The position numbers and the translations under genes were made by a program. This document shows positions 53,283 to 60,819 of a DNA stretch of 64,000 nt, in pieces. Under the pieces are notes generated by a model that saw only the letters and a list, made by a program, of their open reading frames with translations, searched no databases and was not told the DNA's origin. The stretch lies in assembly GCA_000004985.1 (NCBI GenBank), contig GG738853.1; one strand, written 5' to 3'. This stretch comes from Naegleria gruberi (taxonomy: Eukaryota). Positions within the stretch are counted from its first letter, which is position 1. Each line of letters begins with the position of its first letter.

Positions 53283-53354
53283 GGGACCATGGTCTAGTGG
53301 TATGATTCTCGCTTTGGGTGCGAGAGGCCGTGGGTTCGATTCCCACTGGTCCCC
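53283..53354 (+). tRNA. tRNA-Pro (anticodon TGG)
   Basis: GGGACCATGGTCTAGTGGTATGATTCTCGCTTTGGGTGCGAGAGGCCGTGGGTTCGATTCCCACTGGTCCC. The 7-bp acceptor stem pairs GGGACCA with TGGTCCC. The anticodon loop TTTGGGT gives UGG. The T-loop is GGTTCGATTCC, and it closely matches eukaryotic tRNA-Pro. A TTTCCTTTT run follows the gene. Confidence 0.92.
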
Positions 53355-53807
53355 TTTCCTTTTAGTTGTTTTCCTCAAATTGTTTTTAAAGTGTTAAACA
53401 TATGTATGAATTGGTATTATTTTAATCTTTATTTAATTTGAACGACTACCTCAAAAACAAGACGCCATTTCATATGAAGCATGTTTGCTCCAATTACTCG
53501 TAACATCATAGATATTCATTGCTGCTACCAATTCGTCTTCATACAGAAATCCTGAACAAGAGAAGCATGCTCGTGGTGATTATCGTGATGCAGAGAATAA
53601 CAATGAATGGTTGTTTTGTCTCAATCTTTTTTGGTTTTTTTGAAATGAGTGGACATTTTAGGTCAGTGTTATCTTAATTGATTATCTTTATGGAACCTTG
53701 ATAGAATTGAACCAAAATTTCACCATAGAAACTATACATTCTATGAACAATAAGTATATGAGAATGATCATCATATCAAAACGATTAAGGGAGAAAGAGA
53801 CAAAATT

Positions 53808-53888
53808 TGCAGAAGGTGGGATTTGAACCCACGAAGCTTGCGCAGTAGAACTTGAGTCTACCCCCTTTGACCACTCGGGAACCCCTGC
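53808..53888 (-). tRNA. tRNA-Leu (anticodon CAA), class II with long variable arm
   Basis: Reverse complement reads GCAGGGGTTCCCGAGTGGTCAAAGGGGGTAGACTCAAGTTCTACTGCGCAAGCTTCGTGGGTTCAAATCCCACCTTCTGC. The anticodon stem GTAGA/TCTAC encloses the loop CTCAAGT, giving CAA. The T-loop is GGTTCAAATCC. The acceptor stem has two G-U pairs. A T-run follows the 3' end. Confidence 0.88.
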
Positions 53889-54591: not shown

Positions 54592-55410
54592 TTATTTCAT
54601 TTCACTTATGTATTTAACTCCTTCATCACCACTTTGACTGTAACCAATATCAAGTGATGTTAATTGCTTCATTTTGCTAATGTATTTGTATCCTTCACCA
54701 CTAATTTCATTGGCAGAAATATCAAGTGATGTTAATTGTTTCATTTCACTTATGTATTTGGCTCCTTTATCACCAATTTGATTATTAGCAATATCGAGTG
54801 ATGTTAATTGTTTCATTTCACTTATGAATTTAACTCCTTCATCACCACTTTGATTGCTACCAATATTAAGTGATGTTAACTGTTTCATTTCACTTATGTA
54901 TTTAGCTCCTTCACCACTAATTTCATTGGCAGAAATATCAAGTGATGTTAATTGTTTCATTTCACTTATGTATTTGGCTCCTTCATCACCAATTTGGATT
55001 ATCACCAATATCGAGTGAGGTTAATTGTTTCATTTCACTTATGTATTTAACTCCTTTATCACCAATTTCATTGTAACCAATATTAAGCGATATCAATTGT
55101 TTCATTTCACTTATATATTTGGCTTCTTCATCACTAATTCGATTTACACCAATATTAAGTGATGTTAATTGTTTCATTTCACTTAGGTATTTGACACCTT
55201 CATTGCTAATTTCATTGTCATAAATATTGAGTGATGTTAATTGTTTCATTTCACTTATGTATTTGGCTCCTTTATCACCAATTTCATTTTCAGAAATGTT
55301 AAGTGATAGTAATTGTTTCATTTCACTTATATATTTAACTCCTTCTACACAAATTTGATTATTAGTAATATTGAGTGATGTTAATTGTTTCATTTCACTT
55401 ATAAATTTGG
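54592..55410. repeat. 72-bp tandem repeat array (~11 units) encoding the LRR units
   Basis: The motif ttaattgtttcatttcacttatgtatttggctcc...tcaccaattt recurs with a 72-bp period (for example ttcacttatg at 54601, 54673, 54745 ...) and with very high unit identity. Confidence 0.85.
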
Positions 55411-55777
55411 TCTGGTTGGTTTTTACTAAAGAGGCAAGCAACCAACGATAAACTTTAACCTTAACAATACTATTCAGGAATTGACTTTTCATGAATAATT
55501 CAACTCGTTTCTCTGTAAATTTTTTTTTAAATTGAATACCAAGTTTTGAGCGTTCCTTGATCACATTAAAGAATTGTTTTGAAATTAAAGAACAATTATT
55601 TAAAATAAACCACGAATCATCAAGCATGGAAATTATTTCAAAACAAACATCATCTGAAAATATTTCTTGTTGAAGTTTCACACTTTTTGATTTCTCTTCC
55701 ATAATATTGTTAATGAATATTTCCTCCGAATTAATGAATTGATGATTTTCTAAATCTTGTCGATTTCGTTTTCTCAT
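54592..55777 (-). pseudogene. F-box-like / LRR protein gene carrying a frameshift in its repeat array
   Basis: Track ORFs 54986..55777 and 54592..55008 overlap in frames that differ by +1. ATG 55777 has the A-run context. The N-terminus has an F-box-like motif (DDVCFEIISMLDDSWFILNNCSLISKQFF), followed by 24-aa LRRs (ISEMKQLTSLNIxxNEIxDxGxKY). At ~55000 the unit reads aatccaaatt-ggtgat where the other units read gaaattagtggtgaa, a 2-nt loss. This is either a genuine pseudogene or an assembly error in the repeat. Confidence 0.65.
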
Positions 55778-55872
55778 TTTTTTATAAATATCATAAATTT
55801 ATGTGCAGAGTAATGTTGAGCTGATGTTATGATTATTTTCTTATTCAACATTCAGTTATTAAGGAAAGAAAT

Positions 55873-55990
55873 GGCTACGGCCATATCACGATGAATGCAC
55901 CTCATCCCGTCCGATTTGAGAAGTTAAGCATCGTAGAGCCACATCAGTACTGAGGTTGGAGACAACTTGGGAACCTGTGGTGCTGTAGTC
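55873..55990 (+). rRNA. 5S ribosomal RNA gene (copy 1)
   Basis: GGCTACGGCCATATCACGATGAATGCACC...GGGAACCTGTGGTGCTGTAGTC (118 nt) matches the eukaryotic 5S consensus at the conserved helices, including the internal Pol III control region around GAAGTTAAGC. The Pol III terminator TTTTT follows immediately. Confidence 0.93.
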
Positions 55991-56245
55991 TTTTTATCTT
56001 TATGGAGAGAATATTAGTTTGTAATTTTCAGAATAACATGATGGTGTTAATATTTCCTTTATTTTTAAATATTAAGGAAATGCCCATGAAAATACCATGA
56101 TTCATGGACAAGGATTTGATCTTGTGCTCTGGTCAACGGATTTGAAGCATGACTGAAATTAGAAAAGACTTTAAGGGTAACCTGTTCATGCTTAATAATA
56201 AAAAACGAAATCAATTAATGGACATGAATGGGAAACCTGGCATTC

Positions 56246-57179
56246 TCAAAAGATGCTCTTTCTATGAATGATATTGAATCCACTCTCTTCATATTCCTCT
56301 AAGGTTATACGCATCGATGGGAAGGTTGATAATTGGGAGAAAATACTACCACCAAGCCACGCAGTGTACTTTCTATCTGGTGGTGCTATTATTCGAATGT
56401 TCATTGAAGAATGAGATAATTCCCTCAATTCATTATCCAATCGTTCTACTATTCCATTGAACAATGTCGATCCTCCTGAAAGAATAATATTCGAATACAA
56501 TTCCTTTCTAATATCTAAATCCGACTTTCTAATAGAAGTGAAAATATTTTCATGAATTCCACCAACTTCCATTCCAATAAGATTTGGTTGAAATAATATC
56601 TCACTAGTTTTGTATCTTTCACTTCCAAGTGCAATTATATTTCCATCCGGTAATTCATATGAAATTTCTGATATTGTTTCTTCCAAAAAATTACTAGCAA
56701 CACAACCAGCGAAGCCTGGACCGAGGGGAAACCCTTGACCCGGGACGAGCCAGCTGTTTTTCAATATTGATTACCCGCATTAAGCGGGAAACCCTCGCAA
56801 GAGGAACCCCATACCTCAGAGACCCAAACGATTCATTCGTTTAGGCTCGAATCGAGTTCATAATGGCAAACGGATGGATAGCCAGTAGGTGGTGCAAACC
56901 AACGAACGCTTAATTAAATATATAATCCCATATCTTTTCCATGTGATCAAAGTCAGTAATCAAACCACGATCAATTGGATATTTGAAAACATTCACACCT
57001 CTCCTTCCCAATGCAATATCTCCAACGAATGTGTCAATGGAGCCCATTCCAACCATGATGGTGGATACTTTTTGTCATCCAGTAACTGTGGGAAAGACCA
57101 CACATGGAGCATCATCAATAAAACCAGCTTTCATGAGAGAGGAACCATTATCAATGATGAGAGGTGGATGTTCAGACAT
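56246..57179 (-). pseudogene. Actin pseudogene (nonsense codon; central third replaced by GC-rich block)
   Basis: Minus-strand translation from ATG 57179 reads MSEHPPLIIDNGSSLMKAGFIDDAPCVVFPTVTG*QKVSTIMVGMGSIDTFVGDIALGRRGVNVFKYPIDRGLITDFDHMEKIWDYIFN*. This aligns with actin residues ~1-92. TGA replaces the Arg of the VGRPRH segment with no change in length. The C-terminal ORF 56246..~56700 reads SYELPDGNIIALGSERYKTSEILFQPNLIGMEVGGIHE...IIAPPDRKYTAWLGGSIFSQLSTFPSMRITLEEYEESGFNIIHRKSIF*, matching actin ~239-375. About 145 residues (actin 93-238) are missing. They are replaced by ~200 bp at 56700..56905 of ~50-60% GC. Confidence 0.8.
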
Positions 57180-57301
57180 TTTTTTTTTGTAAACTTAGTG
57201 TTATATGGTTGGTTCATGCAACAACATGGTGAGTTAAGGGCGAACAAATACTGACAACAAAACCTAATTAAAACCTTGAAGCTGACTGATGTAAAAGGAA
57301 A

Positions 57302-57374
57302 CGCCCACCGTGGGGGTCGAACCCACGACCACAAGGTTAAGAGCCTTGCGCTCTACCGACTGAGCTAGACGGGC
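57302..57374 (-). tRNA. tRNA-Lys (anticodon CTT)
   Basis: Reverse complement reads GCCCGTCTAGCTCAGTCGGTAGAGCGCAAGGCTCTTAACCTTGTGGTCGTGGGTTCGACCCCCACGGTGGGCG. The anticodon loop CTCTTAA gives CUU. It is nearly identical to metazoan and fungal tRNA-Lys(CUU). A T-rich run follows the 3' end. Confidence 0.92.
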
Positions 57375-57445
57375 TACATTGCTTAATAAATCGTTTCCTT
57401 AATAACGATTTCTATGGTAAAATTCAAGTTTACTATTGATTAATT

Positions 57446-58932
57446 TCAATGTTCTGCGATTCTACAATAATCAGATTTTGATACATCAACTGCAATTCCT
57501 ATTTTGTTGAATTCCTCTTCAATTTGTTGAATCACGATATCCCTATTCGGATTATTTTCAAGTTGAATATTATTATATCTCAAATCAACAAATTCTAACA
57601 ATGTGAATTCTTTTCTCTGTAATTGGATTTGCTCTGCAATAAATAGTGCATCATTTTCTGTTGTTGAACCTGATAATGATAAATCCAATACGCGAACTCT
57701 TTTTGCAATATTTGATTTCATAATAAGTGGTAAGAGTTGCGGAATATTATAAGTATTTCTCAGACCAAAATATTCTAATGTTGGATACTTTCCATTCTCT
57801 GATTCTGAAAGCAGTTCTGTTAAATTTTTTTCTGTAATATCATTTGTAATGTGACAGGTCGATCATTTTACTTCTTATTTGACAGGGTGACCCTAACCAT
57901 AATTCTAAATGTTTCAATTGTGGGAATGAGCAGTTAAGAATTGATTGTAACATGGAATTTTCCATTGCTCCTGTTCTTATAATTAATACTTTCAAGTTGT
58001 TCAATTTAACTGGCTCTTGAAAATCACAATATCCAGCTAGATAGAGAAATTTAAGATTTTTGAAATATTTTAGTATTGAGATAGAAGTATAACAGGAATT
58101 TCGTACATAATCATTGGTTGACTTGGTATTTTCTACATAAAATTTTTTCAAACTTGAAAGAAGAAGAATAAACTAACCTCGTATGGAAATAATATTATCC
58201 AACTCAATTGGTTCGTAAGCTTCCTGTTGTTCTATTATATAATTATTAAACGATTCATGAAAGTAATTAGAACTTGGATAGCTCAACGATAATTCTTCAA
58301 AAGTTTTCAATTTTTCAATAATGTCCTGTGTTTCCTTGACCAATTCAACTGCTGGTCTCATTTTCCCATCTCCTAGTTGTGCACTTTTCAATTCATTTTT
58401 AAAGAATTTTAATATATCCAATCTGTCTTTGATAATCTTTTTGATAATATTCAACAGTACTTGTTTTTCATTCTTAATACTAGTGCTGCGTTGATTCATT
58501 TTCTTAATTGATTCTTGCCACTTTTTTCTAATGCATTCCAATTTTTCATCTGTCATTCTCCCAGATTGCAAAAGCATTCTCACAATTACTGGATAACTCA
58601 TTATTTGCTGAACTGAAAGATACACAATTAAATAGTACTGGTAGTTGCACTGATGATAATGCAATTCTCTTATTAATAAATAAATCGTTATACATATTAA
58701 TAAAAAGAAATCTATTATTTGCAATCTTTCCATAATATTCCTTATTCAATAATAAACAACTTGTAATTGTTTTGTAATCCAAATACTGAAAAACAATATA
58801 ACAAATAATATCGGAGGAGAGATTTTTAAATGAAATGTTTGTAGGAGAGAGGAGAGCAAAATCGGGACAATTCTCGCTCCAATCATCACCACGATCAAAC
58901 GTATCATTGTGCTGATGATGGTGATTAAACAT
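57446..58932 (-). CDS. F-box-like protein with C-terminal LRR-like region (multi-exon; re-joins four track ORFs)
   Basis: ATG 58932 is in an A-run context (caaaaatcaaaaaaaATG). The N-terminus has an F-box-like motif (SDIICYIVFQYLDYKTITSCLLLNKEY). Track ORFs 58546..58932, 58173..58733, 57840..58151 and 57446..57721 are co-oriented, and consecutive pairs are joined by short GT..AG introns that restore the frame. One is a 40-nt intron, GTAAAA...TTACAG at 57832..57871. Another is a ~43-nt intron around 58608..58650 (GTGCAA...TTCAG, or alternatively a 31-nt GTACTA...TTCAG). The C-terminal exon has LRR-like LDLSLSG...LRYNNIQLENN. Stop is TGA at 57446. Confidence 0.6.
57832..57871 (-). other. Spliceosomal intron (40 nt, GTAAAA...TTACAG)
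   Basis: Removing it joins ...LWLGSPCQIR to KKNLTELLSESENGKYPTLEYFGLRNTYNIPQLLPLIMKSNIAKR... in one frame. Its length is 1 mod 3, which accounts for the +1 frame offset between the two track ORFs. Confidence 0.6.
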
Positions 58933-59073
58933 TTTTTTTGATTTTTGTAAAATTTGCTGAATTGGATTTCATAGCCTTAGAAACTCAAGTGTTGGTCATG
59001 TGAGCATCTAAGGTTTCAATTGGTTTTTAGAACTTGGAATTGGGCTGATATTTCACATTTTGAGGTAATGAAT

Positions 59074-59191
59074 GGCTACGGCCATATCACGATGAATGCA
59101 CCTCATCCCGTCCGATTTGAGAAGTTAAGCATCGTCGAGCCACATCAGTACTGAGGTTGGAGACAACTTGGGAACCTGTGGTGCTGTAGTC
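59074..59191 (+). rRNA. 5S ribosomal RNA gene (copy 2)
   Basis: 118 nt, identical to copy 1 except for one substitution (atcgtCgagcc here versus atcgtAgagcc). It has the same downstream TTTTTATCTTTAT, but different upstream flanks. Confidence 0.93.
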
Positions 59192-59376
59192 TTTTTATCT
59201 TTATCTTTTGTTGACCGATTTCCATCTCAGCACTTTCAATATTTCCTTCCTCAATCCTTTGTAATGCTTGGGTTTTGTGGGTTTGAGCTTTCAAAGTCAA
59301 TTTTGTAATCGCACTTAAAGTTCACAAATGTTTTGAATGTTGAAGTTTGACAACACACAAAGCCAAGTACTAAAAA

Positions 59377-60819
59377 ATGCATATACTTTCCCTCTCGTTG
59401 GATATTTGGCAATTTTGTATTTTTGAATATTGGCTTGGTCCCATTAGTGAAGTGAAATTAGATTCGAATGAAAATATTCTAAAATTTAAACATTTTTTTT
59501 ATCCAAAAATAGTGAATGGTTTGGATTTGGAAACAATTAGAGCAGTTCATAAATTGTGTCATGTTACTAGTAAAAAATCTAGTCACTTATTCATGATTGA
59601 AATGCACGATTTTTGGAAAAAAGTTTCAAATGTATTAGAAATGGTCGTTTATTGGAAACGATATCAAACTTTTGAGGGATTTTCCTTAGCAGTTGGAGAC
59701 ATTACTGTTGATGAGTCAGTTGCCCAAGTTAAAATGCAAAAGCTCATTGAGGCAACTGAAATGAATTCCAACAGAGAATATAACCAAATTATTGACCCTT
59801 CCATGTGTGAAAAAAATTCCTACTACTTTGGTGTGGACTTGGATCTCATACCGAATGATTTTACTGACGGAGAAGTGAACACGTTATTTGAGGAAAGAGT
59901 TCAGAAATTAATGGTATCTGAATCTAAATTTGAAAAGATAAGAGCCATCACTCAATTGGAACCATACGACTTGTTTTTACATAAGGCATTGATCTTGGCG
60001 CTTGATATGGTTTCTTACTTTGATAGTGAGAGACACATGAGTTACAGTACTTATAATTGCTATGACACATTTGAAAAGTGTTGTCTCATTTCGAAAGGTT
60101 TATTTACGAGAAACATGTCGGATCGTTCTCTTGGTCTATTAATTGACTTGGAGAATGAAAGGGAGGAAACTGTGAATCTCTTTGAAAAATTAGAGCCGAT
60201 TTATGTGGCCATTTCAATTCATATCACTCCAGATCATTATCAACACTTTACAGCACCCAAACATGCTCAATTTTTATGTCTTGCTTTTGCACACTTTTTG
60301 AATGAAACACCATGTCCCTATGAAAATTTCCTTGAAGGTCAGGAATTTCCAAATGTTCGTGATTTAACCATCAAGATGCCACCAATTGAAAATAACTATT
60401 ATTTCAAAATTGACACCAAGCAAGTGGAGAAGAACATTCTTTCCTCAATAACGAGGAAGAGATTTCCAAAGTTATTAAGAATTTCAATACAAGGATGTTC
60501 CAGAATAGATAATCTTTTAGAATTGGAAATATTTTCAGAGTTGATGTATGTGGAAATTATTCCACAGAAAATGGGAGACGATTACAATTATATTCTCAAT
60601 TGGTCTGAAAGAAGAGTTCACAATTTTATTAATCATCAATTTATTGAGAAGGATTCTTCATTGATTCACCAATTGGTTGTCCATGCAAATATTGTTAGGA
60701 ATAGTGCTGATGCCAATTATGACAGCATTAAGGAATTTTATGACATGAGTAGAGGAAAATTTGTGCCGTGCATTTCACGTTCCTCAATTAATGAATATTA
60801 TGATAGATGTTATGAATAA
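59377..60819 (+). CDS. Hypothetical protein, F-box-like N-terminus and LRR-like C-terminus
   Basis: 480-aa ORF. The ATG is in an A-run context (ctaaaaaATG), and the stop is TAA. The N-terminus reads LSLDIWQFCIFEYW. The C-terminus reads FPKLLRISIQGCSRIDNLLELEIFSELMYVEII, reminiscent of FBXL-type LRRs. I recognise no other domain. Confidence 0.6.
   Translation: MHILSLSLDIWQFCIFEYWLGPISEVKLDSNENILKFKHFFYPKIVNGLDLETIRAVHKLCHVTSKKSSHLFMIEMHDFWKKVSNVLEMVVYWKRYQTFEGFSLAVGDITVDESVAQVKMQKLIEATEMNSNREYNQIIDPSMCEKNSYYFGVDLDLIPNDFTDGEVNTLFEERVQKLMVSESKFEKIRAITQLEPYDLFLHKALILALDMVSYFDSERHMSYSTYNCYDTFEKCCLISKGLFTRNMSDRSLGLLIDLENEREETVNLFEKLEPIYVAISIHITPDHYQHFTAPKHAQFLCLAFAHFLNETPCPYENFLEGQEFPNVRDLTIKMPPIENNYYFKIDTKQVEKNILSSITRKRFPKLLRISIQGCSRIDNLLELEIFSELMYVEIIPQKMGDDYNYILNWSERRVHNFINHQFIEKDSSLIHQLVVHANIVRNSADANYDSIKEFYDMSRGKFVPCISRSSINEYYDRCYE

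Follow-up and report, generated by a model that had tools for sequence, protein, structure and literature searches.

We analysed a 64,000-nt stretch of the Naegleria gruberi genome (contig GG738853.1 of assembly GCA_000004985.1), referred to here as the window, with a focus on two 5S ribosomal RNA (rRNA) genes, copies a and b, which lie in the same orientation with a start-to-start spacing of 3,201 bp. An unbroken stretch of N, either a scaffold gap or padding, fills positions 1-33348 of the window, and the real sequence occupies 33349-64000 (30.65 kb, 29-39% G+C). Besides the 5S pair, the locus holds three transfer RNA (tRNA) genes, a leucine-rich repeat (LRR) gene, an actin relic with a filler in its middle, and a frame-broken gene of a Naegleria-specific family (Table 1).

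The two 5S rRNA genes and the limits of their similarity

Both copies score well above the RF00001 gathering score of 38 over the full model, and the helices of the three-way junction are intact in each. By Rfam each gene is 119 nt long, one T more than the 118 nt given in a preliminary description of this DNA, whose direct orientation and single-base difference both held. The sole mismatch is at position 63 (A in copy a, C in copy b), which in the Rfam alignment belongs to the unpaired 2-nt bulge of helix II; pairing is therefore unaffected. No further 5S fragments were found in the window. An internal control region and T-run terminators have been reported for the 5S genes of N. gruberi (PMC3369914). 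The box A consensus of that study is matched at 5S position 50 (AGTTAAGC), and the T-run directly 3' of both copies, TCTTTTTATCTTTAT, is a probable terminator for RNA polymerase III (Pol III). The same study states that a conserved TATA box lies upstream of the 5S genes; no common TATA element was seen across copies a and b and a third copy, L009, from a metagenome contig.

Similarity between the two copies is confined to the genes and their immediate flanks. A repeat search recovered homology of ~153 nt per copy at 95% identity, comprising the gene and its near flanks, and within 55700-59400 no other repeat was found beyond short chance matches. Downstream, both copies carry TTTTATCTTTAT and then diverge, with 10/10 identical positions at +1 to +10 and 3/10 in the next ten. 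This agrees with the 13-nt common 3' flank noted previously, which is identical at both copies and marks the end of their similarity. On the 5' side the flanks were initially described as unrelated. This holds beyond about -22, where similarity is at background, and fails for -22 to -1, where the match pattern is TTCA..T.TT.AGG.AA..AAT. Random pairs of 22-mers from the window reach at least 14/22 at a frequency of 6.6e-4, a value to be read with the caveat that the 22-nt span was picked after the ungapped extension of the repeat search. The upstream similarity could reflect an element peculiar to N. gruberi, or it could be left over from local copying. With identity at background beyond -22 and beyond +13, the pair fails the test for a segmental duplication; homology is limited to ~153 bp per gene, and the description of the two genes as dispersed copies stands.

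Table 1. Features of the locus, in window coordinates.
Feature	Position	Strand	Evidence and remarks
5S rRNA copy a	55873-55991	+	Rfam RF00001, 106.5 bits, model 1-120, not truncated
5S rRNA copy b	59074-59192	+	Rfam RF00001, 105.4 bits, full model, not truncated
3' flank of copy a, TTTTTATCTTTAT	55991-56003	+	identical to copy b flank; two short T-runs
3' flank of copy b, TTTTTATCTTTAT	59192-59204	+	identical to copy a flank
Proximal 5' flank of copy a	55851-55872	+	15/22 identical to 59052-59073 (copy b)
tRNA-Pro(UGG)	53283-53354	+	ARAGORN and Rfam
tRNA-Leu(CAA)	53808-53888	-	ARAGORN and Rfam; convergent, 453 nt from tRNA-Pro
tRNA-Lys(CUU)	57302-57374	-	ARAGORN; Rfam RF00005, 66.4 bits; between the 5S copies
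3' T-run flanks	53355-53365 (Pro), 57291-57301 (Lys), 53790-53807 (Leu), 55991-56003 and 59192-59204 (5S)		
LRR gene	54592-55777	-	Pfam LRR_6, LRR_8 and LRR_4 match both open reading frames
Actin relic, C-terminal piece	56246-56705	-	residues ~225-375, natural stop; Pfam Actin 8e-49
Filler in place of ~128 actin codons	56706-56915		210 bp; boundaries from paralog alignment
Actin relic, N-terminal piece	56916-57179	-	residues ~1-90; Pfam Actin 2.2e-15
Frame-broken Naegleria-specific family gene ('F-box gene')	57446-58932	-	four stop-free runs in three frames

For comparison with copies from other organisms we scanned metagenomes with segments of the 5S gene. A 37-mer gave no match, and a 23-mer gave 19 loci, of which only L009 (1,964 bp, 36% G+C) is Naegleria-like. 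Its 5S gene is identical to copy a at 117 of 119 positions and carries C at position 63, as does copy b. The flanks and neighbouring open reading frames (ORFs) of L009 are unrelated to those of copies a and b; counted by eye, 6 of the 22 positions from -22 to -1 are common to all three copies, and the 3' flank of L009 (tttatattgtagttttatg) differs from that of the window copies, again with two T-runs. L009 is probably from a different species, and its flanks therefore say little about N. gruberi. The remaining contigs found with the 23-mer carry 5S genes of unrelated eukaryotes, 72-77% identical. On L020 (1-2328), genes for U1, U5, signal recognition particle RNA, U2, U6, U4 and 5S lie within 2.3 kb; 5S, U3, U6 and U5 occur together on L018 (660-1730), and 5S stands beside U6 on L002 and L003. 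These four contigs are from GC-richer eukaryotes, with 5S genes only 73-74% identical to Naegleria. The VFQM/VFQO contigs (L004-L008 and L010-L017) represent an AT-rich eukaryote of one metagenome with many dispersed 5S copies, 72-77% identical to those of Naegleria, with unrelated flanks and similar T-run flanks (ttttact...).

Genome-wide arrangement of the 5S genes

Table S1 of a study from 2012 lists 279 putative 5S genes of N. gruberi on 117 scaffolds (PMC3369914). Its entries 151876 and 155077 on scaffold_9, again 3,201 bp apart, correspond to copies a and b, with an offset between scaffold_9 and the window of 96,003 for both. The pair had thus already been catalogued, and it is an ordinary instance of the family. 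We parsed the published coordinates, linking genes no more than 6 kb apart, and obtained 207 singletons, 30 pairs and 4 triplets. A single gap between adjacent genes, one next to a partial hit, is below 1 kb; the others are irregular, with a median of ~34 kb. Restricting the set to full-length hits on scaffolds 1-100 left 226 copies with 34 gaps of at most 6 kb and none below 1 kb, and the smallest full-length spacing is 1.1 kb.

Close pairs are more frequent than random placement predicts. The N. gruberi genome reportedly measures ~41 Mb, and 279 points placed at random on this length would give ~11 gaps of at most 6 kb, against 38 observed (~3.4x; Poisson P = 2e-10). The maximum in 5000 trials of a random-placement simulation was 23. 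Naegleria genomes span 27-54 Mb, with 33-37% G+C (PMC12482156); the base composition of the window and its long genes with few introns agree with this genus.

The 5S arrangement of N. gruberi is scored as tandem (Y) in Table 1 of PMC3369914. The coordinates of Table S1 contradict this label: there are no tandem arrays, the family is dispersed, and loose kilobase-scale pairs like a/b recur in the genome. The preliminary description had named a tandem array elsewhere, with these two genes as the only dispersed copies, as a finding that would weaken its view of the locus as an islet of Pol III genes; Table S1 contains no regular array, and the pair is listed in it. The idea that the arrangement is unusual for the organism found no support, as scattered 5S genes are the norm in N. 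gruberi. In itself the pair therefore matters little, being a routine example of how this genome keeps its 5S genes. The re-analysis of the published coordinates brings out a loose clustering at the kilobase scale and corrects the label of the earlier table.

Pol III genes and damaged protein-coding genes around the pair

ARAGORN and Rfam agree on all three tRNA genes, in line with their initial assignment as tRNA-Lys(CUU), tRNA-Pro and tRNA-Leu. Two short T-runs lie downstream of all five Pol III genes in the window. The 3' flanks of tRNA-Pro (tttccttttag) and tRNA-Lys (tttccttttac) have 10 nt in common (TTTCCTTTTA) after two unrelated tRNAs; the flank of tRNA-Leu reads aattttgtctctttc and that of both 5S genes ttttatctttat. 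Judged from these five genes, the double T-run is probably a Pol III terminator followed by a fail-safe second T-run. Such a role would explain the common 13-nt flank of the 5S pair without duplication. The double T-runs may also offer a hint on Pol III termination in a deep-branching eukaryote in which no TFIIIA has been found.

We then compared the density of Pol III genes at the locus with the genome as a whole. A survey of tRNA genes (tDNAs) counted 924 in N. gruberi (PMC2888827). With these, the 279 5S genes and the genome length of ~41 Mb used above, the interval that begins with tRNA-Pro and ends with copy b (5,910 bp) would be expected to contain ~0.17 Pol III genes; it contains five (Poisson P = 1e-6). 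Under random placement ~0.008 such windows would be expected genome-wide. The proposed islet of Pol III genes is thus real at the local scale, yet unsurprising, because tDNA clusters are common in eukaryotes.

The genes transcribed by RNA polymerase II (Pol II) inside this cluster (53.9-59.0 kb) are damaged, all three of them, and the ten or so around it are intact. The actin relic consists of two pieces in different frames. With human ACTB as the tblastn query, residues 8-90 align at 51% identity and residues 237-374 at 56%; the C-terminal piece matches actins in the PDB at 1.7e-77, and with NAEGRDRAFT_44350, a paralog in N. gruberi, the pieces share 82-89% identity. At 57075-57077 the reading frame is interrupted by a TGA where the closest actin paralog, P0009, and also P0012 have Arg, and ~128 codons are absent between ...DYIFN and GCVASNF.... 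The relic contains no uninterrupted frame of ~375 residues and so fails the test for a functional gene of family PF00022. The NCBI annotation has the C-terminal piece only, as a 145-aa 'predicted protein, partial' (P0011, 100% identity). On this sequence evidence the relic is a genuine pseudogene, as had been proposed, with an in-frame stop between its ends and ~128 codons replaced.

The filler that stands in place of these codons is richer in G+C than its surroundings (~50% against a background of ~33%). The + strand folds strongly (z = -3.15, equalled by only 1 of 200 shuffles) into hairpins whose loops are GAAA, GCAA and UUCA; for the - strand, z is -1.79. The motif GGGAAACCCT occurs twice in it, 60 nt apart. 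Searches of Rfam 15 returned no match at E<=5 with 8 kb or at E<=10 with 281 nt, and there is no long ORF in any frame. No similarity was found to tRNA or 5S genes, the rest of the window, the metagenome loci, plasmids or phages, and exact-pattern scans of the prokaryotic genome and viral collections gave no match. The searches lend no support to an origin as a known RNA, a short interspersed element derived from a tRNA-like or 5S sequence, or a coding fragment, nor to one from plasmids, phages, bacteria or viruses. We also considered that the - strand might encode a Pol III transcript, given a TATA-like box ahead of it and T6 at its end, and rejected this because the T6 is actin coding sequence (AAT TTT TTG) in the paralog alignment.

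The LRR gene was suspected of a frameshift, which we could trace to a 1-nt insertion, an extra C on the coding strand (GG on the + strand at 54996-54997). Comparison of the repeat units gives GATAATCCAAATTGG at this point in place of the expected GATAATCAAATTGG. A premature TAA (CAA-to-TAA) follows at 54592-54594 in a later repeat unit, which reads EMK*LTSL against the expected EMKQLTSL. Sequencing error is a possible source of these single-base lesions.

The third damaged gene had been presented as a multi-intron F-box gene. It is a real gene, as its stop-free runs of 190, 138, 128 and 110 codons compare with a maximum of 126 in 2000 shuffles, and it is frame-broken. A HMMER search of the full library with its second ORF (186 aa) found three relatives of 300-351 aa, P0131 (from N. 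gruberi), P0132 and P0133, with identities of 41-43% to this ORF and 33-35% to the conceptual protein as a whole. Relative to these paralogs the gene lacks ~30 residues, with a change of frame between LFINKR and ELHYHQC (paralogs ...EHYHFC.DY...). The other two frame breaks may be introns, since GT..AG segments of 45 and 40 nt could span them; for comparison, an intron of 62 nt is confirmed in the monooxygenase gene next to it. We rejected an intact gene with mini-introns of 43, 45 and 40 nt, as the 43-nt intron would take out HYHQCNYQYY, the counterpart of the conserved HYHFC.DY of the paralogs, which can be read only once the frame is shifted. NCBI models only a 142-aa piece within the gene (NAEGRDRAFT_64118, 100% identical). 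The F-box label found no backing: Pfam detects no F-box in the conceptual 452-aa product (E<=0.01), nor in the three paralogs or the 143-aa N-terminal model (E<=1), and the N-terminal motif is F-box-like by eye only.

Versions of this gene that are 96-98% identical exist elsewhere in the assembly, as NAEGRDRAFT_76662 (on two scaffolds of up to 33.9 kb) and NAEGRDRAFT_76395 (on a 14-kb scaffold). From their sequences they are probably alternative haplotypes of the locus, or else a very recent duplication. They are affected by the frame problem too, as is seen from P0134, which reads through in the first frame.

Intact ORFs of 2221, 1201, 755, 492 and 480 aa flank the cluster. The longest after the first, of 1201 aa, may encode a type II topoisomerase, which it resembles by eye only. 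The 480-aa ORF (59377-60819), which adjoins copy b, matches a predicted protein of N. gruberi at 100% identity, whose NCBI model begins 75 codons after the first ATG of the ORF; it has no Pfam domain. This protein, the C-terminal actin piece and NAEGRDRAFT_64118 all map to one 695,587-bp contig. The family of the ORF is multi-copy and specific to N. gruberi, with six more N. gruberi relatives, 39-69% identical, and one metagenome protein. The metagenome contig L001, which encodes a 68%-identical relative of this ORF, contains no 5S or tRNA gene. We also considered the frame-broken gene as a paralog of this ORF and rejected the relationship (BLASTP E = 0.3).

Origin of the pair and comparison with known systems

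Together these data support a model where copies a and b are, very probably, independent and probably functional members of a large dispersed family of N. gruberi 5S genes that has no tandem arrays. The family is scattered over the nuclear genome, its genes standing singly or in loose pairs or triplets with spacings of 1-6 kb. Each copy would be transcribed as a self-contained Pol III unit whose internal control region comprises the match to box A and a segment like box C, and would end in a T-run that is followed by a second short one. The near identity of a and b would reflect a uniformity of the whole family, maintained by purifying selection on the RNA and possibly aided by gene conversion. 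A recent duplication of a 3.2-kb segment is not indicated, because the DNA between and around the copies is unrelated single-copy sequence. The pair is part of a local Pol III cluster, where three tRNA genes and the two 5S genes occupy 5.9 kb and alternate with the three damaged Pol II genes.

Several observations weigh against this model. The strict box C consensus is unmatched in the two genes, the corresponding segment being TGAGGTTGGAGACAACTTGG, and TFIIIA was not found in N. gruberi (PMC3369914), which bears on how the internal promoter is to be read. The count of 279 genes takes in partial hits and is probably inflated by redundant haplotype scaffolds, which we suspect because scaffolds 248 and 382 have a 5S copy at identical coordinates. 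The 12-13 identical bases past the gene, together with the 15/22 upstream, exceed chance, and L009 is without the flank motifs common to a and b. These similarities would be accounted for by a local copy, in which insertion or gene conversion carried a cassette of ~150 bp, reaching from about -22 to +13 past the gene, from one site to the other 3.2 kb away. The pair would then be a young local duplicate and not two old members of the family. The length and identity of the repeat (153 nt at 95%), the flank matches on both sides (12-13/13 and 15/22), the different flanks of the Naegleria-like L009 on either side of its gene and the genome-wide excess of close pairs (38 against ~11 expected) all fit such an event. 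However, the upstream 22 nt are 68% identical and the gene 99%, which does not suit a young cassette unless its boundary was that of the gene. The 3' motif also resembles a functional double T-run that the tRNA genes possess as well, and L009, probably of another species, has flanks that are weakly informative. We consider a local copy somewhat unlikely on balance.

The preliminary suggestion of a recombination or insertion hotspot is plausible by analogy with tDNA clusters elsewhere. A fragile or insertion-prone site, at which replication-transcription conflicts or targeted insertions damaged the three Pol II genes and brought in the filler, would explain why the LRR gene, the actin relic with its deletion and filler, and the family gene are all damaged inside 53.9-59.0 kb and the large genes on either side are intact ORFs. 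Clusters of tDNAs have been described as dynamic, unstable regions and linked to replication fork pausing and retroelement integration (PMC2888827). Nevertheless, this is a single locus considered in hindsight, its lesions showed no transposon, target-site duplication or repeat, and the frameshift and the stop could be errors of a draft assembly. Reverse causality is at least as likely, with new Pol III copies persisting where the DNA was already dispensable, and we regard a fragile site as unlikely. More speculative, and in our view distinctly unlikely in this full form, is a break-prone Pol III cluster in which the filler was captured during break repair, for example from the high-copy rDNA plasmid, or is an undescribed structured non-coding RNA gene, and near whose Pol III genes new 5S copies are preferentially inserted, giving rise to the close pairs. 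That three decayed Pol II genes and a filler coincide with five Pol III genes at one locus provides a concrete hypothesis for the whole genome.

The assembly itself could also have produced the two copies, from a mis-joined or partly collapsed repeat. The 33,348-base N run that opens the window and the 96-98% identical versions of the between-copy gene on small scaffolds would be in keeping with this. Yet the 3.2-kb spacer is unique and contains recognisable genes, all four junctions are unique, and similar kilobase-spaced pairs occur at >30 other places. The copies moreover differ by one base, and a collapse would yield one copy, not two. An artefact of this kind is very improbable.

The closest precedent for the pair is the published set of N. 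gruberi 5S genes, which covers the same organism and the same genes; their neighbours, such as tRNA genes and pseudogenes, and their flanks are not discussed there (PMC3369914). Classical tandem 5S rDNA arrays, as in animals, plants and Trypanosoma cruzi, involve the same gene and the same polymerase. Unlike these, the pair has no constant-length head-to-tail unit; its spacers are unrelated, and the 3.2 kb between the copies is unique. In Yarrowia lipolytica (109 copies) and Schizosaccharomyces pombe (30), 5S genes lie outside the rDNA unit as scattered individual Pol III genes, as they do here. An extrachromosomal plasmid carries the large rRNA genes of N. gruberi (PMC12482156). For 48 of 108 5S copies in Y. 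lipolytica, a tRNA gene is joined immediately 5' of the 5S gene, and the two are transcribed as a dicistronic unit without TFIIIA. The pair differs in this respect: no tRNA gene lies within 1.3 kb of either copy, the nearest being 1.3-1.7 kb off and, as tRNA-Lys, on the opposite strand, so that it fails the test for a dicistronic tRNA-5S gene and no tRNA-5S fusion is present.

Clusters of tDNAs provide a second comparison, in that tRNA-Pro and tRNA-Leu, 453 nt apart, count as clustered under the 1000-nt rule of PMC2888827, a survey that leaves 5S genes untreated. In the tRNA arrays of Entamoeba (PMC2652664), 5S and tRNA genes occur together, as they do in the window. Those arrays are long and tandem, with short tandem repeats separating the genes, whereas the Naegleria locus has no repeated unit and unique Pol II genes lie between its Pol III genes.

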